DNA from: a virus
Lineage: Duplodnaviria > Caudoviricetes
Length of the DNA: 30,069 nt
Virus record (IMG/VR): IMGVR_UViG_3300030372_003225
Span: 1 to 30,069 of that record
Strand: one strand, 5' to 3'
The translations under genes and the position numbers were made by a program. A model generated the notes under the pieces. That model was not told where the DNA came from and did not search any database. It saw only the letters and a program-made list of their open reading frames with translations. This document shows, piece by piece, positions 1,524-20,984 of this stretch (its first letter is position 1; every line of letters starts with the position of its first letter).

Positions 1524-1537
1524 GGAGATAAAATAAT

Positions 1538-2617: not shown

Positions 2618-2619
2618 TT

Positions 2620-4664: not shown

Positions 4665-4665
4665 T

Positions 4666-5709
4666 ATGGCCTGGACAACAATAAATAAAAGCAGTTTACA
4701 CATGAACCCTAAGCTCTACACAGGGAACGGTTCAACAAATGCAATTACTGGAGTTGGATTTCAACCTGACTTGGTTTGGTTAAAAAATAGAGATACTGCT
4801 AATTCACATCAATTGTATGATGCTGTTAGAGGAACAACAAAATATATTGAATCAGATAATAATGGTGCTGAATATACAAGTGCTAATGGTATTTCAGCTT
4901 TTGGCACAGATGGATTTACAATAAATGGAAATTTAACAGGAGCAAATAATAGTAGTGATAATTTTGCATCATGGAACTGGAAGGCAAATGGTGCAGGCTC
5001 AGCTAATACAGATGGAGACATAAATTCTACTGTTAGTGTTAATACTACAAGTGGTTTTAGTATTGTGAAGTATGTTGGAAACTCAACAGCAGGCGCAACT
5101 GTAGGTCATGGCTTAGGTGTTGTTCCACAATTAATATTATTTAAAAGATTAAATGCAAGTAATGTTTGGATTACAGGAGATATGGTAAATAGTTTTACAA
5201 AAATTATGTTCTTAGATACTACTGCAGCATCAACTACTGATAGTAATGCTTTCAATGATACTAATCCTACTTCAAATGTTTTTACATTAGGGTCAGCTTT
5301 AGGCACTGGTACTAATTTTAGTGGAGACGATTACATAGCTTATTGCTTCGCCAATATCGATGGCTATCAACGAGTAGGAGGATATACTGGAAATGGAAAT
5401 GCTGATGGAACATTTGTTTACACAGGATTTAAACCTACTTGGACTATGATTAAGTGCACAAGTGGTACGGATAACTGGGTTATAGATGATAATAAAAGAT
5501 CAACATCTAATGTAATGGAAAATACTTTATTTGCTAATACAAGTGGTGCTGAATATACAGGATCAGCTTATGGAATAGATTTTTTATCCAATGGCTTCAA
5601 AATAAGAAATACTGATGGTCAATATAATACAAATGGTGGCTCATACTTGTTCCTTGCCATAGGTCAAACCCAGGTCGGTACTAACGATACGCCCGCGACG
5701 GCGAGGTAG
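4666..5709 (+). CDS. Beta-rich putative tail fibre/virion protein, copy 2
   Basis: Colinear with 1538..2617 (TGVGFQPDLVW, DAVRGT, KANGAGS, SIVKY, GHGLGV, YTGFKP, FLSNGFK); ends in PATAR. Confidence 0.7.
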   Translation: MAWTTINKSSLHMNPKLYTGNGSTNAITGVGFQPDLVWLKNRDTANSHQLYDAVRGTTKYIESDNNGAEYTSANGISAFGTDGFTINGNLTGANNSSDNFASWNWKANGAGSANTDGDINSTVSVNTTSGFSIVKYVGNSTAGATVGHGLGVVPQLILFKRLNASNVWITGDMVNSFTKIMFLDTTAASTTDSNAFNDTNPTSNVFTLGSALGTGTNFSGDDYIAYCFANIDGYQRVGGYTGNGNADGTFVYTGFKPTWTMIKCTSGTDNWVIDDNKRSTSNVMENTLFANTSGAEYTGSAYGIDFLSNGFKIRNTDGQYNTNGGSYLFLAIGQTQVGTNDTPATAR

Positions 5710-5712
5710 AAC

Positions 5713-6162
5713 ATGCTTTTAGGTTTTGATTCCTACTCAGCAACTCCTTTTTCTACTACAGGAGCAGATAACGGTGTAGTAGTTTCAGTTAGCGGAGTTC
5801 CAATATTATTCAAAGTTGGCAACGTCGATATAACTGCTAATTCTATATACCAAATAGCTAATGCTGATCCTCTTGCTTTAAAGACAGGAACTCCAATTAT
5901 TACAGGAGTAGCTAATTTAACAGTTAATGGTAGTCCTCTTGCTGTAGGATCAGGGACTGTTATTGTTTCAGGAGACGCTGATATTGTAGCAACGTTAAAC
6001 TCCTTGAAAATTAAGACAGGATCGGTTACAGTAACAGGAACATCAAACGTAACGCCTACAGGCTCACCAATTTTAGTTAAAACAGGGGTCGGTAGTGCAA
6101 TAACATGGAGTAATATAGATCCAAACGCTACAGAAGTTTGGACACCTATAGTACCTTATTAA
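5713..6162 (+). CDS. Virion structural protein with ~22-aa beta repeats
   Basis: N-terminus MLLGFDSYSATPFST, then about five repeats of a V-x-G-x-P-[IL]-x-x-x-x-G-x-V-x-[VI] pattern. Located in the tail operon. Confidence 0.6.
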   Translation: MLLGFDSYSATPFSTTGADNGVVVSVSGVPILFKVGNVDITANSIYQIANADPLALKTGTPIITGVANLTVNGSPLAVGSGTVIVSGDADIVATLNSLKIKTGSVTVTGTSNVTPTGSPILVKTGVGSAITWSNIDPNATEVWTPIVPY

Positions 6163-6164
6163 TT

Positions 6165-6908
6165 ATGGCATCAACATATTCATCAGATTTAAAACTAGAA
6201 ATAATGACAACCGGCGAAAAAGCTGGTCAATGGGGAACAATTACAAATACTAACTTAAACATTTTAGCTCAATCTACGAGCGGTGTTCTAAGTAAAGCTA
6301 TGGTTACAACTAGTCCATATGATACTTCATTACCTATTTCAGACGGATCAACTTCTGATGGTAAAAATTTATATATTAAACTTACAGGAACTTTAACCGC
6401 TAATAGCACCGTAACTATGGCTGCAGCAGGGGCGAGAGTTTTTATTATTGAGGACACAACAGACAGAACTACAAGTGAATTTACAATCAATGTATTGACA
6501 GCTAGCAGTGGAAGTCCCGTTCCTTTACCTGCAAAATCTACATGTATATTCTATTCAGATGGCACTAATACCTCTTTAGGTGGTATCATTAAAAAAGGAT
6601 ATATTAATATTAATTCTGCTACTACAACTGCTTACACAGCAGTAAATGGAGATCAAGTATTAGTATCTACAACTAGTAACACTGTGGCAATTACATTACC
6701 TGCGAGTCCTTCAACAGGCGACGAAGTGACAATTATGGATGTTTCTGCAACTGGAGGTTTTGCGTCTAACAATGTAACAGTAGCTAGAAATGGACAACCC
6801 ATTCAAGGTGCTGCTTCTGATTTTACAATGTCAACTAACAATCAATGTCTAACTTTTATCTATACAGATGGGACAAAAGGTTGGCTATTAAAATCAACAA
6901 ACGTATAG
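6165..6908 (+). CDS. Tail fibre/tail-anchor protein (start corrected to ATG 6165)
   Basis: N-terminus MASTYSSDLKLE...GQWGTITNTNL is typical of phage fibre anchors. C-terminal YTAVNGDQVLVST...ITLPASPSTGDEVTIMD module. The ATG lies 2 nt after the previous stop, whereas the track start at 6138 is a TTG inside the previous gene. Confidence 0.65.
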   Translation: MASTYSSDLKLEIMTTGEKAGQWGTITNTNLNILAQSTSGVLSKAMVTTSPYDTSLPISDGSTSDGKNLYIKLTGTLTANSTVTMAAAGARVFIIEDTTDRTTSEFTINVLTASSGSPVPLPAKSTCIFYSDGTNTSLGGIIKKGYININSATTTAYTAVNGDQVLVSTTSNTVAITLPASPSTGDEVTIMDVSATGGFASNNVTVARNGQPIQGAASDFTMSTNNQCLTFIYTDGTKGWLLKSTNV

Positions 6909-6918
6909 GAGCTAAATA

Positions 6919-8916
6919 ATGGCTCTTACTACCATTAAGATTTTCCCTGGTGTCGATAAACAAGATACTAACGTAGGTGCTCAAGCACGTTGGGTTGATT
7001 CCGATAACGCTAGATTTAGATATGGTACACCTGAAAAAGTAGGTGGATGGTCTTCACTATTAACTGAAACTATAGTAGGTGCAGCAAGAAAGTTATTTGC
7101 TTTTGTAGATTTAGAAGGAAATAGATACACGGCTATTGGAACAGATAAATTTTTACTTATTTATTTTGAAGGTCAAATTTATGACATAACTCCTTGGAGA
7201 AGTGACGATTTTGGGGCTCAAATTACTTTTACATCTTCTACTTTAGCAACCGATAGTACGACAGCTAAGACATGTACGATAACTACGACAACTCCACATG
7301 GCCTAGAGATAGGTGATATTATTTATCTAGATAGTGTAACTCTTCCTGCTGGGACAGGCTTAACCAATGCTCAGTTTGAAGATAAACTTTTTCAAGTTTT
7401 ATCTACTCCTTCTACAACTACTTTTACAATTAACTCTTCTAATCAAGCAAGTGCAGTAGTAAGCACTGGCGGTAGTATGACTGTAATGCCGTATCAAAGA
7501 ATAGGACCTGTTGAACAAACATATGGATATGGATGGGGAATACCTCAATATGGCGGTACGGTGAGTTCAGGATCTCAAACAGGATGGGGAGTTGCAGCTG
7601 CAGCTTCGTCTGTTACTTTGGAACCTGGATTATGGTCATTTAGTAATTATGGACAGGTTTTAATTGCTACAGTTTTAAATGGAAAAACATTTACATGGGA
7701 TACATCTATTGGATCCAGTACAGCATTCACAACACGTGCTTCAACAACTACTCCTAATTTTGTGACAGCTTTAGTATCTGGAACTAATTTAGGAAATCCT
7801 ACAGCATCTAGAATGACTTTAATTTCACCTACTACTAGACACGTTATCCATTGTGGCACTGAAACTACAATTGGTGATGACAGTAGTCAAGACGACATGT
7901 TTATTAGATTCTCAGATCAAGAAGGTTTAAATGAATATAAAGCAACTGCAGTTAATACTGCTGGTTCTCAACGTTTGCAAGATGGAACTAAAATTATGGG
8001 AGCCATTAAAGGTAAAGAAAATATTTTAATTTGGACAGACAATGCTTTGTATACCATGAAATTTGTAGGTTCTCCTTTTACATTTGGTTTTGAACAAGTA
8101 GGAACTAACTGTGGTTTAATTGGACAGAATGCATGTTGTGAGATTGATGGTGTTGCTTATTGGATGTCCAACAATGGTTTTTTTGCATTTGATGGTACGG
8201 TTAATTCATTGCCTTGTGCTGTAGAAGATTATGTTTATGATGACTTTGATACTACTAAAGGTCAACAAGTTTGTGCTGGAATTAACAATCTATTTACAGA
8301 AGTTGTTTGGTATTATCCTACATCAGGATCAAGTTTTAATAATAGATATGTAGTATTTAATTACGGAGAGTCTGGTAAATTACCTATGGGTAATTGGTAT
8401 ACTGGAGTTAATACAAATGCAATTAGAACAACATGGTTAGATTCATTAGTATATCCTAAACCTTATGCAACAGCTTATAAAAGTTCTAATTCAGGAAGTT
8501 TTCCTGCGGTTATTGGAGAAACAGGACTAGGTTCATCTACGTTATTTCAACATGAAACAGGGACCGATCAAATTAATGCCGATGGTACAACTACAACATT
8601 AACTTCATTTATTGAGTCTTATGACTTTGCATTACAACAAGAAGAACCCGAGGTATTTTTAGCAATGCGAAGATTTGTTCCTAATTTTAAAGCTTTAACC
8701 GGAAATGCTAAAATAACCATTTCTGTTAAAAATTTTCCTTCTCAAACTAAGACAGTTAGTACATTAAGTCCCTTTACAGTGGATGCAAATACTACTAAAA
8801 AGGACACACGAGCTAGAGGAAGATATGCAAGTATAAAAGTAGAAAACGCCGGCGCAGGAGAGTCTTGGAGATTTGGGCCTTTCCAAGTTGACGTTCAACC
8901 AGACGGGAGAAGATAA
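6919..8916 (+). CDS. Tail nozzle / DNA-stabilisation protein (P22 gp10 / tail tubular protein B-like beta-propeller)
   Basis: 665 aa with motifs WVDSDNARFRYG.PEKVGGW, IRFSDQE, CGLIG, YWMS..GFF.FDG, EVVWYYP and C-terminal RARGR. GGAG RBS. Lies just before the internal virion genes. Confidence 0.7.
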   Translation: MALTTIKIFPGVDKQDTNVGAQARWVDSDNARFRYGTPEKVGGWSSLLTETIVGAARKLFAFVDLEGNRYTAIGTDKFLLIYFEGQIYDITPWRSDDFGAQITFTSSTLATDSTTAKTCTITTTTPHGLEIGDIIYLDSVTLPAGTGLTNAQFEDKLFQVLSTPSTTTFTINSSNQASAVVSTGGSMTVMPYQRIGPVEQTYGYGWGIPQYGGTVSSGSQTGWGVAAAASSVTLEPGLWSFSNYGQVLIATVLNGKTFTWDTSIGSSTAFTTRASTTTPNFVTALVSGTNLGNPTASRMTLISPTTRHVIHCGTETTIGDDSSQDDMFIRFSDQEGLNEYKATAVNTAGSQRLQDGTKIMGAIKGKENILIWTDNALYTMKFVGSPFTFGFEQVGTNCGLIGQNACCEIDGVAYWMSNNGFFAFDGTVNSLPCAVEDYVYDDFDTTKGQQVCAGINNLFTEVVWYYPTSGSSFNNRYVVFNYGESGKLPMGNWYTGVNTNAIRTTWLDSLVYPKPYATAYKSSNSGSFPAVIGETGLGSSTLFQHETGTDQINADGTTTTLTSFIESYDFALQQEEPEVFLAMRRFVPNFKALTGNAKITISVKNFPSQTKTVSTLSPFTVDANTTKKDTRARGRYASIKVENAGAGESWRFGPFQVDVQPDGRR

Positions 8917-9098
8917 TGACAAAAAGACTAAACATTGAAAAAGCAATTAAGAAACCAGGTGCGTTAAGAAAATCGCTTGGAATTAAAAAAGGTGAAAAGA
9001 TTCCTTTAAGTAAATTAAATAAAGCAGCTAAAGCAAAAGGTAAATTGGGTCAACGAGCTCGTTTTGCTAAAACTTTAAGAAAAATAAATAAAGCCTAA
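8916..9098 (+). CDS. Small, highly basic protein, putative DNA-binding/condensing virion protein
   Basis: 60 aa with 21 K/R and 2 E; KAIKKPGALRKSLG motif; TAATG-coupled on both sides. Confidence 0.65.
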   Translation: MTKRLNIEKAIKKPGALRKSLGIKKGEKIPLSKLNKAAKAKGKLGQRARFAKTLRKINKA

Positions 9099-9265
9099 TG
9101 ACAAAATTAGTAGTTAGATTACCAGAACCTAAAAAAGAATACACTGAAGATAATCAAAGACAGATTAATAGAGCTTTAACTTCTGTTATAGAACAATTAA
9201 ATTCTACGTTTTTAAAAGACATGAAGGAGGACCAAGAACGATTTACTTGGTTTGGATTAGGTTAA
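9098..9265 (+). CDS. 55-aa hypothetical virion protein (missed by ORF track)
   Basis: MTKLVVRLPEPKKEYTEDNQRQINRALTSVIEQLNSTFLKDMKEDQERFTWFGLG*. TAATG overlaps at both ends, and it exactly fills the gap. Confidence 0.8.
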   Translation: MTKLVVRLPEPKKEYTEDNQRQINRALTSVIEQLNSTFLKDMKEDQERFTWFGLG

Positions 9266-9597
9266 TGGCTAATATATATAAAAATGATAAAGTAAGTTTA
9301 ACTAATACTGACAATACAACTTTGTATACAGTACCATCAAACTCAAGGGCTATTGTAAAATCTTTATTAGTTGTAGAAGATAATGGTGGTGCAGCAGTTG
9401 TTAAAACAACATTAACTAATGAAGCAGGTACAGCATTTGTAATAGACAATGATATTAATTTAAGTGCTAATCAAAAGGAACAAGTTTTAAGTGAACCTTT
9501 AATTATGCAAGAAAGTGAAATATTAAAGGTACAAGCAACTAGTGGTAATGTAGATGTTATTGCATCTATACTAGAAATCAACAGAGAGGATAAATAA
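9265..9597 (+). CDS. Small beta-sandwich virion protein (start corrected to ATG 9265)
   Basis: MANIYKN...TTLYTVPSNSRAIVKSLLV...ILKVQA. TAATG coupling at 9263-9267. Confidence 0.65.
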   Translation: MANIYKNDKVSLTNTDNTTLYTVPSNSRAIVKSLLVVEDNGGAAVVKTTLTNEAGTAFVIDNDINLSANQKEQVLSEPLIMQESEILKVQATSGNVDVIASILEINREDK

Positions 9598-9842
9598 TGT
9601 CGTTTATAGAACAAGAAATGAAAATAATACAAGAGGAAGTAAATGGTCAAAAAGTACCATTTGTTAGACCTGAAGTAGTAGTTACCTTAAAACATAAGCT
9701 AACAGGCAAAGAATATGGATCTGATGCTGAAGCTGAAGCCGATATTCAGGACCCTAATACGGAGACTCAGTCACACCACATTGAGCGAAGTGTGAGAATA
9801 AATGTTAAACTTCCTCCTTTAGGAACATCAACTAACTTGTAA
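9597..9842 (+). CDS. Hypothetical protein
   Basis: 81-aa ORF, TAATG coupled, GAGG RBS. Confidence 0.7.
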   Translation: MSFIEQEMKIIQEEVNGQKVPFVRPEVVVTLKHKLTGKEYGSDAEAEADIQDPNTETQSHHIERSVRINVKLPPLGTSTNL

Positions 9843-9914: not shown

Positions 9915-12728
9915 ATGCCAATAACACGAGCGCAAATGAACAGACAATTATATGCAGGGGGTGGAATTATGACAGTTGCCCCAAGAGAAAAATTTGGACT
10001 AGGAAGTAGTCTTAAAAAATTTGTCAGAAAAATTATACCTAATGAAATTTCAAAAGTAGCTACAGTTGCAGCTCCGTTTGTAGCTCCATTTAATCCATTA
10101 CTTGCTGCAGGAATGGCTGGTATTGGTGGTTTTGATCAACACGGAAGTATAAGTAAAGGTTTAAAATCTGGATTAATGACATATGGCGGTGGTCAAGCTG
10201 CTAGGTATCTGGGTGGCGCTGGATTTCAAGAAGGTATAAATCCTTTTTCTGGTTTTGATGGGGGCGTAGGAAGTTTATTTAGTTCCCCTATTGGTACAGA
10301 AACAGGACTTAAACTAGGTCAATACAAAATGTTTGGTGGTTCACCAGAACTTAAAACAGTAACAGGAGTAGATTCCTCTCCAATTCAAATGGCAACGGAT
10401 TCAGCAGTTAATGTTAATGATGCTCTTTTAGGAAACCCAGATTATATGGGTGGCACAACAAGCAGTGATTTAATAAATAAAGCAGTAAGCGGTAATATAT
10501 CTAACACAGGATCTCTTGTTAATAAAAAAGTTGTAGAACAAAGTTTCTTTGAAACATTGAAATCTGGTAACATGGCCGATATAGGTAAGGCTACTATGGA
10601 TCTAGGTGGTAAAGCACTTAAAGCAATATTTACTAATCCTATTACAAATGCAGCAGGAGAAGTAACAGGAACTACATTAGACAAAACTGCAATTCTTGCA
10701 GCACTTGTGGCCGTTCCAAGTTACTTGGAAGCAAAAGCTTTAGCTGATGAAGCAGGGCTCACGGACGAAGAATTTAATGAAGATTTATACAATGCAGAAA
10801 AAGCTTCTTACATGTCTAAATATCAAGAAGCACTACCTTATGAAAGTTTTGGTTTAAAAGATGGTGGAAGAATTAAGTATGCAGGAGGTAGTGATCCTAG
10901 AGTTACCCAACTATTAGAAATAAAAAGAGCATTAAAAGAAAAAGGTGAGGACACTTCTGATATTGATGCCGAGATATTTCAAATAACAGGGAGAGTATTA
11001 GAAGCATTTGGTACTGATAAAAATAATAGAGAAGGTATTGAAACCATTGATATTGGTATGGAAATGGAAGAAAAACCTGAAAATGATAAATTAGCTTTAG
11101 GTATGGACACCATTAGAGACTACGCTTTAGGAATGAATGATGGACAAGGTCCAATTACTAGAAAAGACTATATAGATATTTATATATTCATGGGGCATGA
11201 CACAGGTACGGCAACCTCTTTAGGAACCAATGCCTATAAAGAAGGTGTTAGTAATGTAGAAGGTTTAAAAGATGGTGGAAGAATTAAAAGAAAATTTGGT
11301 TCTCCTGAAAAGGGAGAAGGTATTGAAACCATTGATATTGAAATGGAAAAAGAAGAAGTACCTGAAAACGAATTAATGGCAGGTATTACATTTAGCTCTG
11401 CAGAAAAATCTTATTTGTTTAGAAGACTAGCTGGTAATCAAGGATCAGACAGATCCTACACAATGCCTAAATTGTATAGAATTTTAAACAATCCAGGATC
11501 ATATCCTGATGATGCAGCTATATTAAAACAAATTGCTATTATGGGCCTTAACAAAAAAGATGGTGGAAGAATAGGGTTTAATGAAGGTACTAACTTAGAC
11601 GAAATTTTAAAAGAAGATATGACTATTTCTGAGAGCCGTAATGATCCAAAAAATATGACTACAAAAGAAATTGTAAGTATTATTCAATCTGGGAGATCTA
11701 CTCCAGAGATGTTTGAAGAATTAATGTTAAGAGGTTACTCTGGAGTTGATTCACTGATATTAGAGGAAATAGGTGGTAAAAAATTAGACAAACCTGAAAC
11801 AGCTTATACTTTTAGATCTGATGGAAAAACAGGTGTACTAGAAGACTTTTTATTTAAATTAAGAGAATCTAATCCTGATATTTATGGAAAATATAAAAGA
11901 CCTATAGACAATTATCCTACTGAAGGTCCTTCTACACAAGTAAAATTTTTGGATAATACAACGATGAAAGCTAACGGTGGCAGAATAGGATTTGAAAGTG
12001 GTACTTCATGGATTACTAAAAAATCTGATTCAACAGGAATAGAAGATTTAATGATAGATGGAGAAAACGATCTTACAGAATGGATTAAGAGAAAAACAAT
12101 TATAGACAAAGAACCTGCTTCTAATTGGATTCAGAAAAAAATAAAAACAGTTGAAGATTCAGACAAAGAACCTACTTCGTGGATTAAGAAAAAAGAAGAA
12201 CCTGAGACATGGATTACTAAAAAATCACAACACAACAAATTAATAGAAAAATTAGATTCTTTCTATCAAGACAGTGAAGCTAGCGGTGGAAGATTGTTTC
12301 AAGACCTACAAACTACACATGGAATTTTATTAAGAGACTTACAAAATGGAACTAATAAAAGCGGTTTAAATACCGATAAAATTAAAGCAGAAGATCCTGT
12401 TGAAATGACAGCCACAATCTTACTAGGCACATTTTCTACTGGTGGTAAATCTATTGAAGAAAAAGCAAAAGGTGGTATCATGGGGATGGAAGTTCCTGTA
12501 AGAAAAAACCAGGGCGGTGTCAGTGAACTAGACTACAGAAATACCGGCGGCTTTGTACCAGTTGGCGTTAAAGAGAGAGCTGATGATGTTCCTGCAATGT
12601 TAAGCAAAAACGAATTTGTATTTACTGCAGATGCAGTAAGAAATGCTGGTAATGGCAATATTAATAAAGGTGCACAAAAAATGTATAACATGATGAAAAA
12701 TTTAGAAAACGGAGGAACACTAGCATAA
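9915..12728 (+). CDS. Modular internal virion protein with repeated GG motifs (putative polyprotein / ejection protein)
   Basis: Gly-rich hydrophobic N-terminal region; repeated KDGGRI/ANGGRI motifs; C-terminal GGFVPVG...DDVPAMLSKNEFVFTADAVR domain. Confidence 0.6.
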   Translation: MPITRAQMNRQLYAGGGIMTVAPREKFGLGSSLKKFVRKIIPNEISKVATVAAPFVAPFNPLLAAGMAGIGGFDQHGSISKGLKSGLMTYGGGQAARYLGGAGFQEGINPFSGFDGGVGSLFSSPIGTETGLKLGQYKMFGGSPELKTVTGVDSSPIQMATDSAVNVNDALLGNPDYMGGTTSSDLINKAVSGNISNTGSLVNKKVVEQSFFETLKSGNMADIGKATMDLGGKALKAIFTNPITNAAGEVTGTTLDKTAILAALVAVPSYLEAKALADEAGLTDEEFNEDLYNAEKASYMSKYQEALPYESFGLKDGGRIKYAGGSDPRVTQLLEIKRALKEKGEDTSDIDAEIFQITGRVLEAFGTDKNNREGIETIDIGMEMEEKPENDKLALGMDTIRDYALGMNDGQGPITRKDYIDIYIFMGHDTGTATSLGTNAYKEGVSNVEGLKDGGRIKRKFGSPEKGEGIETIDIEMEKEEVPENELMAGITFSSAEKSYLFRRLAGNQGSDRSYTMPKLYRILNNPGSYPDDAAILKQIAIMGLNKKDGGRIGFNEGTNLDEILKEDMTISESRNDPKNMTTKEIVSIIQSGRSTPEMFEELMLRGYSGVDSLILEEIGGKKLDKPETAYTFRSDGKTGVLEDFLFKLRESNPDIYGKYKRPIDNYPTEGPSTQVKFLDNTTMKANGGRIGFESGTSWITKKSDSTGIEDLMIDGENDLTEWIKRKTIIDKEPASNWIQKKIKTVEDSDKEPTSWIKKKEEPETWITKKSQHNKLIEKLDSFYQDSEASGGRLFQDLQTTHGILLRDLQNGTNKSGLNTDKIKAEDPVEMTATILLGTFSTGGKSIEEKAKGGIMGMEVPVRKNQGGVSELDYRNTGGFVPVGVKERADDVPAMLSKNEFVFTADAVRNAGNGNINKGAQKMYNMMKNLENGGTLA
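10851..11287 (+). repeat. 26-nt exact direct repeat ggtttaaaagatggtggaagaattaa (10851-10876 and 11262-11287; partial third copy ~11556-11572)
   Basis: Read directly from the sequence; encodes GLKDGGRI. Confidence 0.9.
11029..11340 (+). repeat. 27-nt exact direct repeat gagaaggtattgaaaccattgatattg (11029-11055 and 11314-11340)
   Basis: Read directly from the sequence; encodes EGIETIDI. Confidence 0.9.
12007..12226 (+). repeat. Five W-I-x-K-[K/R] peptide repeats; 19-nt exact repeat catggattactaaaaaatc at 12007 and 12208
   Basis: SWITKK, EWIKRK, NWIQKK, SWIKKK, TWITKK in the translation. Confidence 0.85.
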
Positions 12729-13597
12729 TGGCAACTAACACTACAATCAATAGACCCGCTCCCTATTTAGAAGCAGCAGGAGAAACACTATTAGATCTAA
12801 CTACCAAACTTACAGGAAAAGAAGTTGATACTTCCAAATTTGCACCAACAGTTGCAGGTCAAAATGTATTAACACAACAAGCACAACAACAAGCAGCAAC
12901 ACAAGCGGGACTTGGTACTTTAACTTTTGGATCAGAAGGTCAAGTTAGTGGTGTAGGTGCAGGTACAGGTGTTGCAGGTTATCAACCTTTTTTAGATCAA
13001 GCAGCAGCATATTCAGGACCACAAGGTTATCAAGGTTTTATGTCACCTTACCAACAAGACATTATAGATACTTCATTAGCAGAATTCGATAAACAAAAAG
13101 CAATACAACAAAATCAAATAGCTCAAAATGCAATTACAGCTGGAGCTTTTGGTGGAGCTAGACAAGGTGTACAAGAAGCAGAATTTGGAGCCCAAACTTT
13201 ACAAGACAGAGCTTTATTACAAGCACAGATGTTAGGACAAGGATATGCACAAGCTAATCAATTAGCAAATCAAGGTTTTGAACAACAAAAAGGTTTAGCA
13301 TCATTACAACCATCACTAGCACAAGCTAACATACAAGCACTAGGTGGAGCAGGTACTAGCGATCTTGGATATCAACAAGCACTATTAGATGCGTCTGCAC
13401 AAGGTAATCAATTAAAAGCATACGAACCATATAACAGATTACAATTCTTAAGTTCTATAACTGGTGGATTATTGTCAGGGCAACCTCAAGCTTATATGAC
13501 AACATCCCCTGCAACAGGAGGAACAGCCGGACCATTAAGCACCGCACTGGGAACAGCAGCTAGTGTATATGGTTTAGGAAGTTTATTTGGAAAATAA
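12728..13597 (+). CDS. Gln/Ala-rich internal virion (DNA ejection/pilot-type) protein
   Basis: MSPYQQDIID and AGAFGGARQGVQEAE motifs, Q/A-rich helical composition, Gly-rich hydrophobic C-terminus. Confidence 0.6.
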   Translation: MATNTTINRPAPYLEAAGETLLDLTTKLTGKEVDTSKFAPTVAGQNVLTQQAQQQAATQAGLGTLTFGSEGQVSGVGAGTGVAGYQPFLDQAAAYSGPQGYQGFMSPYQQDIIDTSLAEFDKQKAIQQNQIAQNAITAGAFGGARQGVQEAEFGAQTLQDRALLQAQMLGQGYAQANQLANQGFEQQKGLASLQPSLAQANIQALGGAGTSDLGYQQALLDASAQGNQLKAYEPYNRLQFLSSITGGLLSGQPQAYMTTSPATGGTAGPLSTALGTAASVYGLGSLFGK

Positions 13598-15231
13598 TGT
13601 ATAACGTATTTAAAAGACCTATGTTTAGAAAAGGTGGCAGTTCTAAAGGAACTGGTATCATGTCCCATGTAGAACCTAGAGTTCAAGCCAACAGCGGTTA
13701 CTTTGGTCAAACACCTATTTATCCTGTACCCTTAAATCAAATTAAAGTAAATGCTGCTATGGGTATGGGTGATGGTAGGGTTCCAATGATGAAAAGTTTT
13801 CCTATGGATGCACAAGTTATGGGAGCTAGTACCAATGTTAGACCTACCATAAATAAAAAAAACACTGATACTTCTCTATCGGGTTTTGATTATGGAATAG
13901 ATGGTCAAATGCCTAATGTTGAAGGTCCTTCTCAAGAAGAAATTTTTGCTCAAATGTTTGAAAGAGTTACAAAAAAAGCAAAAGAAGGTAAATTTTTAAA
14001 TGCTGAAGAAAGAAAATTTGCAATGGACAATGGTATTAAAATGTACAACGAATTAGCAAGTGGGGATACTCAAATTTCATTAGAAGAAGTTATTGCTGAT
14101 AAAAACAAATCTAAAGAAATAGATTTTTCTGAAGTAGGTGCTGCAGGAGATCAAATTACTATGGCTTCAGAATCAGAAAAAATAGCTAGAGCTAATGCAT
14201 TACAAAAGAAAAAATTAGATATCGTACCTGGTGGAGACAATAGTGGTAAACTTACAACTGATATTATGGAAGAAGTTGCAAACGAAAAGAAAATTTTAAA
14301 CGAACTATTAAAAAATGACAAATTAACTAGAGGTGAGAATGCTTTAATTATAGCAGCCGCTTTAACTGAGCCTGGTGGAATTAATGAAAAAGTTAAAAAA
14401 GCAACAGAGCTTGCATTACCTGTCGCAAGATCAAGAGCTAAAGAAGATAAAGCTGTTACATTAACTGCTTACAAAGCTGCTAAAGAAAAAGAAAAGTATG
14501 CACAAAAATATAAAGCTGATGCAAATAAACCTACTCAGGAAATGAAAAACCTAAACAATAGAGCTAATATTTTAATACAAAATGGTGACAAAAGAGATAA
14601 AGAAACAATAAAAGCAGAAATGATAAAAGATTCAATGAATGAGTCTGCAGATGTTAAAGCACAAAGAGCAATTATTAAACAATATTTACCTGAAATTGAT
14701 GAGAGACATAGTGATGTTTTAAAATACAGAAAACAAGTAAAAGAATATGCAAATAAGTACACAGGAAAAGATATAACTCAAGATAAAAAATACATAAACT
14801 TACTTGAAAAATTATCTAAGGCAGAAACTCTTTTTGGAACATTTATAGATAGTAATGATGTTTTATTAAATACAGTTCCTCAATATAGAGAAGTAATTGA
14901 AAGTCTTTCTAAAACAAAAGCTAAGGATGGCGGACGAATTGGTTATTCAATGGGTACAGACCCCAATGAACCGATTGAAGATATAGAATCTACAGAAGTA
15001 ATAACAACAGGCGGTACGGAAACTCAAGAAAAACCTGTTCTTAATTTAAGTTATGCAGAACTTAGGGATAGATTACCTCCTGAAATAACAGATCAAGTTG
15101 TAGCTTTATTAGCAAGTAGTGAGGAAGCCTTACAAGACTTTGCTTACATTACTTCACAAGAAGATGTTCAAAAGTTTAATGTTAAATACGGAGTAAATTT
15201 AGTTGTTCCTCCTGCTCAACCAACTGCATAG
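13597..15231 (+). CDS. Internal virion protein (charged, helical) with GG motifs
   Basis: N-terminal RPMFRKGG...GIMS; KAKDGGRIGYSMG at residue ~445 precedes an acidic C-terminal domain; TAATG coupled. Confidence 0.55.
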   Translation: MYNVFKRPMFRKGGSSKGTGIMSHVEPRVQANSGYFGQTPIYPVPLNQIKVNAAMGMGDGRVPMMKSFPMDAQVMGASTNVRPTINKKNTDTSLSGFDYGIDGQMPNVEGPSQEEIFAQMFERVTKKAKEGKFLNAEERKFAMDNGIKMYNELASGDTQISLEEVIADKNKSKEIDFSEVGAAGDQITMASESEKIARANALQKKKLDIVPGGDNSGKLTTDIMEEVANEKKILNELLKNDKLTRGENALIIAAALTEPGGINEKVKKATELALPVARSRAKEDKAVTLTAYKAAKEKEKYAQKYKADANKPTQEMKNLNNRANILIQNGDKRDKETIKAEMIKDSMNESADVKAQRAIIKQYLPEIDERHSDVLKYRKQVKEYANKYTGKDITQDKKYINLLEKLSKAETLFGTFIDSNDVLLNTVPQYREVIESLSKTKAKDGGRIGYSMGTDPNEPIEDIESTEVITTGGTETQEKPVLNLSYAELRDRLPPEITDQVVALLASSEEALQDFAYITSQEDVQKFNVKYGVNLVVPPAQPTA

Positions 15232-15239
15232 GAGTCTAA

Positions 15240-18200
15240 ATGGCCTGGGAAACTTGGGAAGAAGATGTTGAAGTTGCAAGAGGTGGCGACGTTGGAACAT
15301 TAGGATATATTACTGATACTGTTATTACAGGTCCAGCTAAAGGATTAAGTTTAGCTGTTAGAGGACTGTTAGAAATGGGTGCAATGCCTATTGATTATTT
15401 AGCTAACACAAATTTATTAAAAGGAATAGAGGATATTTTTGAAGGAGATGGTTTCCTTGCAACTCCTGATACTAAAACTGCATTAGGAGACATTACTTCT
15501 GTTATAACTCAGTTTGGAGTTCCTTATCTAGGAGCATTAAAAATTGCTAATGGTTTAAGTAAAATGAAATCAGGAGCTGGTTTCACAATGACTAAACTTG
15601 GTAGCCTATCTAAAGCTGGTAAAGCTGCTGAACTTACTAAACGTGCAGGTTATTTTGGAGGTATAGGTGGAGTTGTAGATTTTGCAGTTTCTACTCCAAG
15701 TGAATTAGGAACCTTGTCTGATATTACAGGGCTCACGGAAAAAACTGATTACTCAGGTTTAGAAGGAAGAGATAGAGCAATTGAAACTATAAAAGGTAAA
15801 GCAAAATTTGGTGCAGAAGGAGCTGTGTTAGGAGCGGGAGTAACACTTTTACCACAAGCAGCATCTTTAGGTTTTAGATATGGAATTCTACCTGCAGCTA
15901 AAACAGTTGGTTATGTAGGAGGAAAAGCTTTAAATGTAGTGGACTACCCCTTAACAGGAGCAATTAATGCTATTGTTGGTAAAAATAATAAAAGTATTCT
16001 TCAAGAAGCAGTTATAGCAGGTCGAACTAGATTGTCAGATGCAGGTAAAAAAATTGCAGGCGATGTAGAATGGAGATATGTTCCAGCTGAAGGTGGTTTA
16101 ATGGATCATCTTAAAAGAAGAATTATAAAATTAAGAGATCAATTTGATACATATAGAGGACAAGGTAAAGCTATAAGAGATATACAAGTAGATCTTAATT
16201 TAAAATTTGGTGCAGAACAAAAAACATTAACTAGAATTGGTCAAGCCATTCAAGAAGGACACAAAGATATTATAGATAAATACAAAGTTATTTTTAATAG
16301 AGATGGAGATTCATTATTAAAATTACAATTAGAAGACAACAAAGTACACAATTTATTACTAGCTACTTCAAAAAGCGAAAAAAGAGAAATACTAAAAACA
16401 ATTCCAAAAGAAGTTAGGAAAAATGTAATGCGGTTTGATAAATTAATTGATGCTGCAGCTACAAGATTTAGTGCATTTACTGCTGGAATAACTAAGAAAG
16501 AGGCTTTGCAAAGTTTAGCTGCAGACTATGCTTTGTATAGTAAAAGAAATTTTGCTGCATTTAATAATAAAAAATTTGAATTTAATCCTCTGTTAGACAA
16601 AAATGCTATTAAAGAATTTAAAAATATAATTAGAACAGGTGACAAAGATGTGTTAGCTGCAGTCAGACAAGAAGCTGTTAAAATAGCTAAAGGAGCTACT
16701 TCAGGAAAAGTTTATGACGATGCTTATGAACAAGCATTAGAGAAATTTGCTAAAAGAGATATGTTAGCATACAAACAAAAAGTTATATCTGGAGCACAAA
16801 GCCCCGAGTTTGCATTTAACGAATTAAATAAAATGTGGAATGTTACAGAAAAAACTAAAGGCGAACCGTTAAAAGCTTTTAAAGGGGAAGATCTACCTGA
16901 TGCAGTAAAAAGAATGTTATCTGTTGAAAAAGGTAGAACAGGTGCAGAACTCTCTAAAAAAGGTGTAAGAGATTCTTCTGGAAAACTAATAACTGAAGAC
17001 GTTAAAACTTGGAGTGCAATTAATGCGGGTCTAGATGTAGCTCTTCAACAATCAAAACAAATGTATGGTAAGAAAGCTTTTGATAGTATTTTACAGGCAG
17101 GCTTAAGAACTGGAGACAATGTAAACGGAGCAATATTTGATGCTGCCGCTAAGGCAAGATTGGGCAGTAAAACAGAACTTGTAAATCTAGCTAACATTGG
17201 GCATAAACAAAATTTTTCTGATCTTGTTATGACAAGTGATTTATTTAACGGTAAGTATTTCGCTGCTCCAGAATTAGCTCATGCATTAGTGGGTGCTAAA
17301 GAAGCAACCGCTGGGTTGTATAGTCTTCCTTTTTATAAAGGTTTAATGACTTTAAAAGCAGGTGCACAAATATCTAAAACAATTTTATCACCTATGACAC
17401 AAATAAGAAACTTTACAACAGCAGCAATGTTTCCTATGGCTAGTGGATTAATAGGAGGTCGAATTGGTTTTAAAGATGCTTGGAGATTAACAGGTGAAGA
17501 TATATTTGCAGGAGCAAAAACAGATATAGAAAGAATTGCTAGAATAGAAAGATTAATTGAAAGAGGAGTTATTGATCAAAACGTTAACCTGGCTGAAATG
17601 AGAAGAGTTTTAGAAGCTGCTAAAAACGGTAAACTTGATTTTCAAGGGCTAATGAATAGTCCTGTTATGAAAAAACTAACTGATGTATATCAAGGTGCTG
17701 ATAACTACTGGAAAATTTATTCAGATAATTTTTATCAAGGTGCGTTAGCAACTGCTTTTTCTAGAAACGGTGCTATGGACGCAACTGCTTTAATGAAGAT
17801 GCCTGCAGGTGCTCAAAAAGAAGCTGCTCAAGCTGCTTTTTTTAAAAACATAGATGATTGGTTTAGAACAGTTACAGGTAGTAAATTTGAAAAAATTAAT
17901 ACTTTTACAGGTGCTGCTAAAACTCCTTTAGAAGCATTAGAAGAAGCTTCTGCGTATTTAGTTACTAATACAATTCCTACCTATAGTAAGGTTCCAAAAG
18001 TAATTGAAAATATTAGAAACTTACCTTTAGGAAACTTTATAGCTTTCCCTGCAGAAATTTTAAGAACTTCATCAAATATATTTGCAATTGGTACAAGAGA
18101 GTTAACTAGTAATAATCCTTACATAAGACAAATGGGAATGAGAAGATTAGTAGGTCTTTCGACTGTTCTTGGCGGTGTTGGATATACTGTTAAAAAAGGA

Positions 18201-19529
18201 GCTCAATATATAACAGGAGTAGATGATTCAACTATGGAAGCTTTTCAAACTTACTTTGCTCCAACGTATCAAAGAAATTCTACGTTAATACCAATGACTT
18301 CTCCAGATGAAAATGGTAATTTTAAATATTATAATTTTTCATATTCAAATCCATACGATACTTTAGTTTCCCCGGTTAATGCTGTTATAGGTGCTTTCTC
18401 TGATGGTAGGCTAAATAAATCTACTGCTAATGAAATTATATATAATGCTTTATTTGGTGAACTAATTGGTGGAGATGGTCAAAAAAGAAAAGGTGCTATT
18501 GCCGAATTTATTACTCCATTTGTTACAGAATCAATTGGTACAGAAAGAGTTACAGACGTTTTACCTGTCGGTAGAAGTGGTAAAACAAGAACAGGTAAAG
18601 TAATTTATTTTGAACAAGACTCACCTGATGTTAAATTAGCAAAATCTATTAATCATATTTTTGGCGGTTTAACACCTGGAGCAGTTACTAGTGCTCAACG
18701 TGTATGGGAAGGTGCAACTGGAAAATTTACAGATTACGGAACTCAAAGAGATGGTGCAGCTGAATTAGCAGCTTTAATGTCAGGAGTTAGATTAGAAAAT
18801 GCTAAACCCCTATCTAGTATGCCTTTTATATTAACTTCTTACGGAAAAGATAAAGGATTGATTAGAAGTAAATTTGCTAAAACAGCATACTCAGCAAGAA
18901 CTTCACCTGAAAATAAAATTGGTGCATGGAAACAATATGTATTAGAAAACTATGCTAATCAAACTCAAATGTTTAACACAATAAAGGCGGCAGAAGAATT
19001 AGGTATTAGTTCAAGAGAATTAAGAAAAATTTTAGAAAACAGATTAACTAAAACTGAATCAAGAAGTTTAATGAGAGGTGAGTTCAAATCTCCGACTTAT
19101 AGTATTGAAGCTTTTGAACAATTATCAAAAAGATTAGAAGATGAAGATCCTTTTAAAGCTGACGAAATTACAGACCAAAACGAAATTGTAATGGATATTT
19201 TTAAAGACAGTCAAAAAGCTTTGAAAAAATTTGAATTAGGGAGATCTATGGAAGAATTAGAACAATTTATAGATGAAATTTTATCACCAGGAGTAGAAGA
19301 ATCTAGAGAAATAATAGACACATCTGTATCTCCAAACATTACTCCTGTTCAACAAACAGAAGCTAAACTGCCTGTCGACGTAAATATGGCTACTTCAGCA
19401 AATACCGTGTTGCCTATTTTAGCTCAAAACAATTCAACAAATCTTGCAACCTTATACGGGATAGATTATAATAGGATGAATACTGCGCAAAAAATTGAAG
19501 CATTTTATAAACCTTTTAGGACAGCTTAA
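15240..19529 (+). CDS. Large internal virion/ejection protein (T7 gp16-like by size and position)
   Basis: 1429 aa, helical, with Gly-rich hydrophobic segments; motifs TQIRNFTTA, DNYWK, NTIPTY, GNFIAFPAEILR; AGGAG RBS. Confidence 0.6.
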   Translation: MAWETWEEDVEVARGGDVGTLGYITDTVITGPAKGLSLAVRGLLEMGAMPIDYLANTNLLKGIEDIFEGDGFLATPDTKTALGDITSVITQFGVPYLGALKIANGLSKMKSGAGFTMTKLGSLSKAGKAAELTKRAGYFGGIGGVVDFAVSTPSELGTLSDITGLTEKTDYSGLEGRDRAIETIKGKAKFGAEGAVLGAGVTLLPQAASLGFRYGILPAAKTVGYVGGKALNVVDYPLTGAINAIVGKNNKSILQEAVIAGRTRLSDAGKKIAGDVEWRYVPAEGGLMDHLKRRIIKLRDQFDTYRGQGKAIRDIQVDLNLKFGAEQKTLTRIGQAIQEGHKDIIDKYKVIFNRDGDSLLKLQLEDNKVHNLLLATSKSEKREILKTIPKEVRKNVMRFDKLIDAAATRFSAFTAGITKKEALQSLAADYALYSKRNFAAFNNKKFEFNPLLDKNAIKEFKNIIRTGDKDVLAAVRQEAVKIAKGATSGKVYDDAYEQALEKFAKRDMLAYKQKVISGAQSPEFAFNELNKMWNVTEKTKGEPLKAFKGEDLPDAVKRMLSVEKGRTGAELSKKGVRDSSGKLITEDVKTWSAINAGLDVALQQSKQMYGKKAFDSILQAGLRTGDNVNGAIFDAAAKARLGSKTELVNLANIGHKQNFSDLVMTSDLFNGKYFAAPELAHALVGAKEATAGLYSLPFYKGLMTLKAGAQISKTILSPMTQIRNFTTAAMFPMASGLIGGRIGFKDAWRLTGEDIFAGAKTDIERIARIERLIERGVIDQNVNLAEMRRVLEAAKNGKLDFQGLMNSPVMKKLTDVYQGADNYWKIYSDNFYQGALATAFSRNGAMDATALMKMPAGAQKEAAQAAFFKNIDDWFRTVTGSKFEKINTFTGAAKTPLEALEEASAYLVTNTIPTYSKVPKVIENIRNLPLGNFIAFPAEILRTSSNIFAIGTRELTSNNPYIRQMGMRRLVGLSTVLGGVGYTVKKGAQYITGVDDSTMEAFQTYFAPTYQRNSTLIPMTSPDENGNFKYYNFSYSNPYDTLVSPVNAVIGAFSDGRLNKSTANEIIYNALFGELIGGDGQKRKGAIAEFITPFVTESIGTERVTDVLPVGRSGKTRTGKVIYFEQDSPDVKLAKSINHIFGGLTPGAVTSAQRVWEGATGKFTDYGTQRDGAAELAALMSGVRLENAKPLSSMPFILTSYGKDKGLIRSKFAKTAYSARTSPENKIGAWKQYVLENYANQTQMFNTIKAAEELGISSRELRKILENRLTKTESRSLMRGEFKSPTYSIEAFEQLSKRLEDEDPFKADEITDQNEIVMDIFKDSQKALKKFELGRSMEELEQFIDEILSPGVEESREIIDTSVSPNITPVQQTEAKLPVDVNMATSANTVLPILAQNNSTNLATLYGIDYNRMNTAQKIEAFYKPFRTA

Positions 19530-20407
19530 TGACATTTTATGAACTATATCAATATTATCTAAACAAAAACAAAGGTGGTGGTGAAGGTATTGAATCTATA
19601 ACCGATAGTACTCAATACATTCCAATTCCACCACGTGCAGGTGGCGGAGACAATGATTTTCAAGGTGGTGGTAAATGGGGAAATTTAGATTTAGATGACA
19701 CTAAAACTTTTAACAAACAAGTTTGGTCAGACACAGCCGGCCCCCCAGGACAATTTGATTGGATGGATCAAGAAGTTAAAGGATATTTAAATCCTAAAAC
19801 AGGACAATATCAAACTTTTGAAGGTAAAAATATAAATCACTTAGGTATAGAAGTTCCAACTATTGCTGGCATGTTGTTTGATAAAAATTTTGGTCAAGGT
19901 CCTCAACCAGGTGATATTAAAGGATTGTTCACAGACGGAGTTCCTCAAAACTGGAAAGACAGTATATCCAACATAGGTAATCCTTTTAAAAAAAATACAG
20001 GTATTGCTAGTGCGTATGATTACAATATTATAGGGGATTCAAGTGTAGACTCAGAAGAAAATCAACCTGGTGATGGAGGTAATATAATTACAAACACAGA
20101 TCAAAGTGGTACAGGTGATGGTGATGGTGGTAGTGGCAACAATAAATTTGCAGGCGATTCAGGAAATAAAGCAGGAACAACAGGATCATGGAGTCCGGGA
20201 GGTACATACACATCTTCTAATACTTCTAATCAAAGAAGACATCATGCATTAGCGGAGGGTGGTAGAGTTAAATATGAATATGGGGCCACTAAAAAAGTTG
20301 CTTTGATTAGAATGCTTTTTAATGAAGCAGGTGGAGAAGAAGGGACTGGAAAGTCATTTGAAAAATTTATGGCAGATGTATTGTTTGAAGGAGACTATTT
20401 AGATTAA
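19529..20407 (+). CDS. Low-complexity Gly/Asp/Asn-rich protein with a GG motif, probable virion cargo
   Basis: LAEGGRVKYEYG at residue ~244; EGIESI and TGIASA motifs; TAATG coupled. Confidence 0.55.
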   Translation: MTFYELYQYYLNKNKGGGEGIESITDSTQYIPIPPRAGGGDNDFQGGGKWGNLDLDDTKTFNKQVWSDTAGPPGQFDWMDQEVKGYLNPKTGQYQTFEGKNINHLGIEVPTIAGMLFDKNFGQGPQPGDIKGLFTDGVPQNWKDSISNIGNPFKKNTGIASAYDYNIIGDSSVDSEENQPGDGGNIITNTDQSGTGDGDGGSGNNKFAGDSGNKAGTTGSWSPGGTYTSSNTSNQRRHHALAEGGRVKYEYGATKKVALIRMLFNEAGGEEGTGKSFEKFMADVLFEGDYLD

Positions 20408-20418
20408 AGGATAATATT

Positions 20419-20610
20419 ATGGCTAAAGACAACGCATTACAAAGAATAGATTCCCATGAAAAATTATGCAGAATAATGCAAAAACAAACACACGACAAAA
20501 TTCATAAATTAGAAAAACAAATTAATCGAGTAGAAAGCATCTTGTTAGTATCTACAGGTGCTTTAATTACTGGAATGGCTTACGTTATTTTTACACTTAT
20601 CATACGATGA
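20419..20610 (+). CDS. Small coiled-coil protein with C-terminal transmembrane helix (XhlA/holin-like architecture)
   Basis: Heptad-like IHKLEKQINRVE followed by hydrophobic ILLVSTGALITGMAYVIFTLII; AAGGA RBS. Confidence 0.55.
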   Translation: MAKDNALQRIDSHEKLCRIMQKQTHDKIHKLEKQINRVESILLVSTGALITGMAYVIFTLIIR

Positions 20611-20984
20611 AAAATAGCTTGCTCGTACATAAGCACCTCATTGTACGTGCTGAAGCCATCCGACCTCCTGTTGATGAAGAACAACTTAAAGAATGGATGT
20701 TAGATTTTATTGCTTCCATTAATATGAAGGTAATGATGGGTCCATATGTTAAGTATTGTAATATGGAAGGCAACCGAGGTATTACAGCTATAGCTGTAAT
20801 AGAAACTTCGCATATAGTAATGCATGTATGGGATGAACCTAATCCAGCGTTGATGCAATTTGATGTGTATTCATGCGGTGATTTTAATCACACAGATATT
20901 TGTAAAAAAATTATGGATGATTTTGATATTCATAAAATAGAATATAAATATTTAAATCGAGAGACTGGTTTACAAGACATTTAA
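20607..20984 (+). CDS. speD: Pyruvoyl-dependent S-adenosylmethionine decarboxylase family proenzyme (substrate uncertain)
   Basis: HKHLIV N-terminus, GITAIAVIETSHIVMHVW (autocleavage SH motif), FDVYSCG; 125-aa size typical of short prokaryotic AdoMetDC. Confidence 0.8.
   Translation: MKNSLLVHKHLIVRAEAIRPPVDEEQLKEWMLDFIASINMKVMMGPYVKYCNMEGNRGITAIAVIETSHIVMHVWDEPNPALMQFDVYSCGDFNHTDICKKIMDDFDIHKIEYKYLNRETGLQDI

Follow-up and report, generated by a model that had tools for sequence, protein, structure and literature searches.

In phages T4, phiKZ and SPN3US, a wide range of otherwise unrelated internal head proteins share one short motif, and they are cleaved as the head matures and then ejected; these prohead cuts follow Glu, and a dedicated prohead protease is needed. 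A double glycine serves as the signal in other systems, since adenain, pS273R of African swine fever virus (ASFV) and C39 cut, as cysteine proteases, after a Gly-Gly that is preceded by a small residue. Motif-directed cutting of internal head proteins is already known in this way, and so is the processing of tape-measure proteins. The tape-measure protein pb2 of phage T5 is cut into pb2* and pb2C after R1127, for which intact-mass data are cited (Linares et al., 2023, PMC10038345), and the T5 record reads R1127-A-E-G-G-M-M at this place, so that the cut falls at the bond between positions -3 and -2 of an A-x-G-G motif. In phage lambda, gpH is converted into gpH* and gpHC by the loss of ~14 kDa from a Gly-rich region, with the catalyst stated as unknown (PMC12617516). 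Here we analyzed a stretch of 30,069 nucleotides (the window; IMG/VR virus record IMGVR_UViG_3300030372_003225, positions 1 to 30,069), which, judged by gene order and homology to HTVC023P and HTVC027P, is that of an HTVC023P-type podophage, and in which a double-glycine peptide motif recurs in three proteins of 937, 544 and 292 amino acids (aa) encoded within positions 9915..20407.

The locus resembles that of T4, phiKZ and SPN3US in that one short motif is shared by many unrelated proteins of the probable head interior, but here the motif lies beyond the predicted cut, and its profile is centered on Gly-Gly with no fixed Glu. Gly-Gly with a small residue before it also recalls adenain, ASFV pS273R and C39, whereas the outside anchors described below point to a cut before A-x-G-G. 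The best explanation, which we regard as close to an even call, is that the peptide marks the joints of the 937-aa cassette protein and of other probable head-internal proteins, that it is a maturation signal cut before its Ala/Lys, and that its DNA is the crossover point of the cassettes. Written as X/A-x-G-G, with the slash at the predicted cut, the motif is likely a cutting signal common to podophage cargo, crassvirus cargo protein 1 and the rulers of siphophages.

Motif Sites in the Window

The motif has the consensus [K/A/F/Y/M/R]-[A/K]-x-G-G-[R/I]-[I/V/M]. The 937-aa cassette protein (9915..12728; this and all other features with coordinates below are on the plus strand) is the probable first cargo protein, occupies the slot orthologous to HTVC027P gp82, and is built of a conserved N-terminal block, a variable cassette array and a conserved C-terminal domain, named EFV here. 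Its N-terminal motif is Y-A-G-G-G-I-M (residues 13-19, 9951..9971), found at the same position in many relatives. Further copies stand at GG317 (10854..10874), where a degenerate second 8-residue unit follows, at GG454 (11265..11285), GG550 (11553..11573), GG688 (11967..11987) and GG853 (12462..12482), with a weaker copy at GG791 (12276..12296) and R-N-T-G-G-F-V (GG878, 12537-12557) within the C-terminal domain. The 544-aa protein, a probable ejection protein (13597..15231), carries F-R-K-G-G at its N-terminus (residue 13, 13624-13644) and an internal motif at GG445 (14920-14940), and the 292-aa accessory protein (19529..20407) carries one at GG244 (20249-20269). All Gly-Gly sites listed in the earlier note for these three proteins were found at the residues given there. 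Its motif span of 9915..20407 applies to the genes of the 937-, 544- and 292-aa proteins but not to two genes enclosed by it, which encode a 289-aa Gln/Ala-rich protein (12728..13597; by position and sequence a probable small ejection protein) and a large probable ejection protein of 1429 aa (15240..19529).

A strict pattern, [KA].GGR[IV][GK][FY], matched three, one and one times in the 937-, 544- and 292-aa proteins, respectively, and these counts were reached by none of 2000 shuffles of each protein. With the looser pattern [AK][DNEKSG]GG[RIF][IVLM] there were seven, one and one matches, reached by 0, 11 and 16 of 2000 shuffles. The remaining 24 window proteins (of 27) contained neither pattern, and a lone GGRIGF at residue 739 of the 1429-aa protein was at chance level (208/2000 shuffles). 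Because both patterns were derived from the finding itself, the shuffles of window proteins overstate significance; the independent test is the motif count in other protein classes of relatives.

Distribution of the Motif among Protein Classes

One fixed pattern was counted in each class and compared with shuffled sequences (the loci are related and partly redundant, and the counts are not independent events). The motif was frequent in the 937 family (278 vs. 14.8 in shuffled sequences, 71 proteins), a comparison that is circular as the pattern came from this family. It was also enriched at the 544 position (53 vs. 5.5, 68 proteins), where an N-terminal [FY][RK]xGG is present in 65 of the 68 relatives, in proteins encoded between terminase and portal genes (89 vs. 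10.5, 136 proteins) and in small proteins encoded past the portal gene (44 vs. 4.5, 149 proteins). Among the extra genes before the helicase, the slot of the 292-aa protein, five of 51 proteins carry it (6 motifs vs. 1.1 expected). Portal proteins (0 vs. 4.3, 62 proteins), nozzle proteins (0 vs. 5.2, 63 proteins), fiber proteins (4 vs. 6.5, 259 proteins) and replication-side proteins (1 vs. 17, 683 proteins) showed no enrichment, nor did the genes between nozzle and cassette gene (3 vs. 7.0) or those upstream of the terminase (2 vs. 3.8). The idea that the motif is confined to virion-internal proteins was borne out in so far as the probable head-internal classes are enriched while portal, nozzle, fiber and replication proteins lack it or have it at or below chance; however, the 289 family (3 vs. 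8.7 expected, 73 proteins) and the 1429 position (18 vs. 12.8 expected, 57 proteins) are not enriched.

The 123 matches of the terminase itself were set aside as one internal false positive and a clade-limited tail. The internal L-Q-P-G-G is a false positive of the pattern, which adds one to the observed count of each pelagiphage-type genome and of DSL-LC04 in the co-occurrence test described below. The terminal F-R-Q-G-G is found in the HTVC027P-like clade, while HTVC023P, DSL-LC04, MinM2, CRP-901/902 and others have no Gly-Gly there, and it was rejected as a helix-end coincidence.

A profile of 243 instances, whose seeds were chosen on positions -2 to +3, showed a mixed residue at -3, Ala/Lys at -2 and Asp/Asn/Glu at -1, followed by Gly-Gly, Arg/Ile and Ile/Met/Val, often with a second degenerate unit eight residues past the first. 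Conservation peaks after the Gly-Gly, at +2, +3, +4 and +8. The third codon positions of the motif Gly-Gly vary about as they do in other Gly-Gly pairs; because of this synonymous variation, and because fixed copies occur in unrelated proteins, the motif is taken to be under selection as a peptide too.

Many carriers are small Lys-rich proteins, and Asp and Asn, as found at -1, favor turn formation. Both features would suit a structural or DNA-contacting element, that is, a small hairpin without any specific partner, through which unfolded cargo could pack or polymerize. We consider this very improbable, since carrier charge differs widely and since such an element would leave unexplained both the T5 cut and the co-occurrence of the motif with the EFV domain. 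Rows of small Lys-rich proteins were also seen past the portal gene in three loci (L013:13690-16001, L259:17782-20000 and L015:21419-22609), many of them with a near-C-terminal motif followed by R-G-x-G.

In one protein family, a signal of twin-arginine type that includes a hydrophobic stretch is found 13-18 residues past a motif in nine of 11 cases, and a signal-like peptide in this place would suit a newly freed N-terminus. Such signals, mostly K-R rather than R-R, lie near the C-terminus of the second protein of the terminase–portal interval (examples are L177:3389-5563, L180:3485-6439, L235:2774-6139 and HTVC027P gp42, L013:8430-11084); there were 11 of them in the 136 interval proteins and none in the other five classes.

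Cassette Exchange at the Motif

The 78 non-redundant members of the 937 family range from 339 to 937 aa, and their inter-motif cassettes stand in differing order. The 937-aa protein is 94% identical to its counterpart in the relatives G001/L001, in which an unrelated 62-aa cassette takes the place of the swappable window cassette (11580..11966; 138 aa from motif to motif). The left crossover of this swap is at the motif of GG550 and the right joint at that of GG688. At the DNA level the switch occurs within the Gly codons of motif 550, and G001 there adopts codons like those of motif 688.

Across 661 close pairs from 169 proteins, 35 distinct swap or indel events were recognized. More than half (19/35) fall in the divergent N-terminal block, where no motif is near, and were treated separately. 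The other 16 belong to the cassette region, and 13 of these have a motif no more than 12 aa away at each of their two ends (chance per end, 0.285 or less). Two more represent a single event found twice and are bounded by another kind of repeat, and the last has one end 14 aa away from a motif. Several of the cassette-region events show an overlap of 5-6 residues, which is typical of deletion between direct repeats. In a first boundary test, 219 of 801 alignment ends, which are not independent of each other, lay within 10 aa of a motif (12.6% expected). The crossover within Gly codons and the 13 of 16 events ending at motifs make the motif DNA a recombination joint. The motif thus stands at module joints, as the earlier note had supposed in having it release modules, and what had been missed is that its DNA is a joint of exchange as well. 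An array of modules is likewise present; however, the cassettes measure 62-138 aa, not the proposed ~95-165 aa, and follow an N-terminal block of 301 aa.

These results raise the question of whether the motif is mainly a recombination scar, namely a repeated DNA joint that encodes a tolerated linker, has no reader and was spread by cassette shuffling. The crossover inside the Gly codons, the events bounded by motifs on both sides and the overlaps of 5-6 residues all fit such a scar, and a deletion is likewise seen at a different repeat of this gene. It would explain the swaps but not the spread of the motif: synonymous codons vary, single copies are fixed in unrelated proteins, and the same peptide occurs in crassvirus cargo and in the tape-measure proteins of T5 and lambda. 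We therefore hold it to be quite improbable as the main explanation.

Other repeats and variants were seen in the same gene. A longer direct repeat is shared by two cassettes (window 11015-11086 and 11300-11371, 88% over 58 nt), and the relative P0008 does not have the 95 aa between its two copies. Past motif 688, a cassette contains W-I-x-K-K repeats (window 11970-12240), where G001/L001 has 22 more residues of such repeats. In L087:8386-9926, the cassette gene is present as two open reading frames (333 and 127 aa), the second of which contains the EFV domain; this may be a natural split or an assembly error.

Correspondence with Crassvirus Cargo and Tape-Measure Proteins

In the ESM Atlas the nearest named cluster was crassvirus cargo protein 1 (0.82), a weak lead. 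The cargo protein 1 of crAss001, gp45, contains eight A-x-G-G, against a shuffled mean of 1.5 (0/2000 reach eight). A looser pattern matched gp45 nine times and gp31, gp33, gp44 and gp47 once each, with no match in the rest of the other 16 late crAss001 proteins scanned. A portal-bound segment of gp45 has been resolved by cryo-electron microscopy at residues 425-552 (Bayfield et al., 2023, PMC10172136; PDB 7qog). This segment begins at N424/A425-F-G-G and stops before the next motif, and the tail-bound segment (214-245) lies within one motif-bounded module. Pfam PF25725 spans gp45 424-555, and among 120 relatives of cargo protein 1 a loose pattern was frequent (408 vs. 132), with [AK]xGG near the start of the domain in 71 of the 120.

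The 937-aa protein and gp45 have several further features in common. Each is encoded after a distal tail gene (the muzzle gene in crAss001) and before other cargo genes, is punctuated by the motif and belongs to a family of variable length (for cargo protein 1, 372 to 1797 aa among the 120 matches, some of them partial). The portal-bound domain of gp45 starts at a motif, and gp45 has a P-x6-E-[FV]-V stretch that keeps the register of the EFV domain when the two are aligned. They differ in that the domain is internal in gp45 and C-terminal in the 937-aa protein, and in that the profile similarity is not significant; neither the window protein nor any of 96 EFV domains matched PF25725. In the main text of the crAss001 paper, neither "cleav" nor "proteoly" occurs, and the motif is not mentioned (PMC10172136). 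Two crassvirus cargo-1 proteins, P0202 and P0214, have ten motifs each together with a precomputed lysozyme domain (PF00959), and in P0202 the lysozyme-like pattern begins 12 residues past a motif.

The main rival is that the motif is a repeated docking tag, which is not cut. It would probably form a short hairpin with an Asp/Asn-Gly-Gly turn and bind the portal, the scaffold or the EFV domain, concentrating cargo in the prohead, with more copies giving more avidity. Copies at N-termini (the 65 of 68 relatives at the 544 position), at extreme C-termini and in small basic proteins speak for a tag, as do the tandem 8-residue units, the free -3 position and the fact that order in the crAss001 portal-bound domain sets in with the motif itself. 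A tag leaves unexplained, however, the T5 cut at the same register and the signal-like peptides just behind motifs, and the 289- and 1429-aa probable ejection proteins would have to be packaged without it. Docking is unlikely to be the whole explanation but is a serious possibility, and it is not exclusive with a cut signal.

Similarly, T5 pb2 is cut at A-x-G-G, and past the cut comes a short domain in which a Glu looks conserved; R-A-E-G-G, the same five residues as at the T5 cut site, opens the EFV domain in several family members. In contrast to the window phage, with its short tail and up to eight sites per protein in several proteins, T5 is a long-tailed siphophage with one site near the C-terminus. 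Lambda gpH has A-T-G-G at 734-737 and after it a G-E-F-V-F-T stretch, to which EFV profiles give weak matches (6-10 bits), and the A-x-G-G sites of gpH at 718 and 734 would yield about 14 and 12.6 kDa. The lambda cut site is not mapped, gpH is a tail rather than a head protein, and it has no cassette array. Moreover, the tape-measure proteins of T5 and lambda are long rulers of long tails, whereas this family spans 339 to 937 aa and its cultured relatives are podoviruses. Cleavage in JBD30 is only proposed in the accessible text of its paper (PMC11445458) and was not used as an anchor.

The shared register makes a cut after Gly-Gly unlikely. The earlier note had drawn on adenain, ASFV and C39 for a protease that cuts there and frees effectors, and the small residue at -2, the Gly-Gly and the placement at joints do resemble those sites. 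But the only mapped cut at such a motif, that of T5 pb2, is two residues before Gly-Gly, the crAss001 domain starts in the same register, and conservation is strongest past the Gly-Gly. No protease family matched any of the 27 window proteins (the head module is not within the window), and no adenain- or C39-like protease is found in the deposited annotation of HTVC027P. A cysteine protease that cuts in this way is highly improbable here. What survives of the original proposal of a protease site and/or packaging tag is a signal at module joints with two outside processing anchors, in a form other than a cut after Gly-Gly.

Beyond this, no prohead protease is annotated in the head modules of HTVC027P, HTVC023P and psg01, where many genes are unnamed. 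At the curated cut-off, Pfam gave no match for the window protein or for any of the 29 family members scanned (of 78), and Pfam and NCBIfam held no family for the motif carriers. Hints of cassette content are the lysozyme in crassvirus relatives and the signal-like peptides behind motifs, with no others.

The C-Terminal EFV Domain

The EFV domain (about residues 865-937, 12507..12725), a tape-measure-like C-terminal domain that had been overlooked in the 937-aa protein, contains its own motif and the residues D890, P893 and E900, which are invariant in 96 EFV sequences from two subfamilies. Tape-measure PHROG 5448 was matched by all 64 of 64 members at E ≤ 0.1 (best 1.6e-7), and the EFV profile matched the tape-measure chain PDB 8zdo twice (E = 0.0095), the only entry returned by PDB sequence searches. 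AlphaFold models were of low confidence (predicted template-modeling score 0.38 for the C-terminal domain and 0.45 for a natural tandem form). With them, Foldseek found nothing at E ≤ 0.001 in PDB and only uncharacterized phage proteins in BFVD, and the best hit of the VIA fold search (Z 5.0) fell on an N-terminal helix pair.

Co-occurrence of domain and motif was compared in 18 genomes that share the capsid family, of which 11 encode one EFV-domain protein and seven do not. Motifs outside the EFV protein were enriched (at most 2/200 shuffles) in eight of the 11 domain-encoding genomes and in none of the other seven, among which QDWS535 reaches 12/200. With its likeness to tape-measure C-termini, its invariant Asp/Glu pair and this co-occurrence, the domain is a candidate reader of the motif, and that it reads or cuts the motif through D890/E900 is speculative.

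In some phages the EFV domain forms a tandem pair in which one Glu is lost, and W04 has two repeats; these arrangements hint that the domain may work as a dimer. In W03 (L292:8091-8684) and in L396-L475, a stand-alone protein of ~190 aa with two EFV repeats, the first with Ser for Glu, is encoded in the same slot, ahead of the ejection genes. Over its first 28 residues, this protein shows weak similarity (E about 0.1) to the N-terminal ends of proteins from Acinetobacter phages that are annotated as "head maturation protease". A bolder conjecture, which we rate as distinctly unlikely, is that X/A-x-G-G is one ancient processing code of tailed phages and that the Asp/Glu EFV domain is a dimeric autoprotease, cutting its own motif and, in trans, other cargo.

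Proposed Mechanism and Opposing Observations

In the maturation-signal explanation, the carriers would be loaded into the prohead, and the 937-aa protein would be anchored there by its C-terminal EFV domain, by analogy with crAss001 cargo protein 1 at the portal. The carriers would then be cut at X/A-x-G-G, just before the Ala/Lys of the motif, and packaged precursors would therefore be split into separate pieces for ejection, which would pass the tail and act separately. The pieces predicted for the 937-aa protein would measure 1.6, 31.0, 15.0, 10.7, 15.6, 11.9, 6.6, 2.7 and 6.6 kDa. Meanwhile, the motif DNA would act as the crossover point for cassette exchange.

Several observations weigh against this mechanism. 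The composition of position -3 (K 30%, A 25%, R 10%, M 8%, Y 6%, F 6%) would be unusual if this were the P1 site of a specific protease, and the T5 site follows Arg. Where a motif lies 13 residues from the N-terminus or at a C-terminal end, a cut would release nothing but a tiny peptide, so that these copies fit a tag equally well. The internal motif of the 544-aa protein is not present in the closest relative: the 542-aa counterpart in G001 is without it, and the 544-aa gene with the first half of the 1429-aa gene (window 13826-17271) is strongly diverged from L001/G001, which elsewhere are 87-97% identical. For crAss001, the parts of gp45 on both sides of the portal are described by the authors as one threaded chain (PMC10172136), and order that begins at A425 would be expected from tight binding no less than from a free N-terminus. 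Alignment of EFV with PF25725 by hhalign was not significant (P 0.04-0.10; reversed controls 0.2-0.6); the same register was obtained in four of four alignments, and this constancy suggests kinship. The EFV profile gave no match to T5 pb2. In the co-occurrence test, the EFV genomes Caulobacter RW and MinM2 showed no enrichment, HTVC023P was borderline (12/200), and five of the eight enriched genomes belong to one clade. Finally, virion proteomics of the HTVC023P group was not found in the accessible literature (PMC9599517, bioRxiv 2019.12.14.876532).

Genomic Setting

In the window, tail and fiber genes (171-9842) are followed by the large unnamed genes at 9915-20407 and then by an SNF2 helicase and replication genes. 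PolA, primase and SNF2 helicase adjoin the cargo locus as in HTVC023P and HTVC027P, the C-terminus of the 937-aa protein matches HTVC027P gp82 and 023Pt_psg01, and gene order agrees. Terminase and portal genes are missing from the window and from its near twin G001. The upstream landmark of the cargo locus is a 665-aa virion structural protein without motif, probably the tail nozzle (6919..8916). The 289-, 544- and 1429-aa genes occupy what is the usual podovirus position of ejection genes, which points to that role, and the matches of the 1429-aa protein include proteins of Cellulophaga phages with the annotation virion structural.

Additionally, window 171-5709 contains two paralogous pairs, of SPRY-domain and DUF7483 proteins, a probable fiber or receptor-binding module, and an S-adenosylmethionine decarboxylase gene lies at 20607-20984 between helicase and cargo locus. 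The N-terminus of the cassette protein (window 9915-9950) is similar to the start of the major capsid protein (in HTVC027P, M-A-I-S-R-x-Q; L013:19045-19953, 34165-35184), and may be a capsid-mimic targeting arm.

Biological Meaning

How podophages choose and process the proteins that they inject is poorly known. According to one report (bioRxiv 2019.12.14.876532), no known group of marine phages is more abundant than the HTVC023P-type group, whose cultured members are podoviruses. In a literature search from which subscription journals were largely missing, the motif as a shared signal was not found, including in the accessible text of PMC9599517, PMC10713586 and PMC11445458; what is new here is the crossover at nucleotide level, the register match with crAss001 and the EFV/motif co-occurrence test. 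A motif that links marine podophages, gut crassviruses and T5/lambda gives exact predicted cut sites, testable on existing virion preparations. If the maturation-signal explanation holds, packaged cargo would be predictable from sequence alone, the motif could serve to load proteins into phage heads, and the cassette system would diversify injected peptides via recombination at the signal itself. If the EFV domain were an autoprotease, it would supply the catalyst that has long been missing for the cleavage of lambda gpH and T5 pb2 and would explain the pieces of crAss001 cargo protein 1 on both sides of the portal, and the most abundant podophages of the ocean would own a plug-and-play cassette system for injected peptides.

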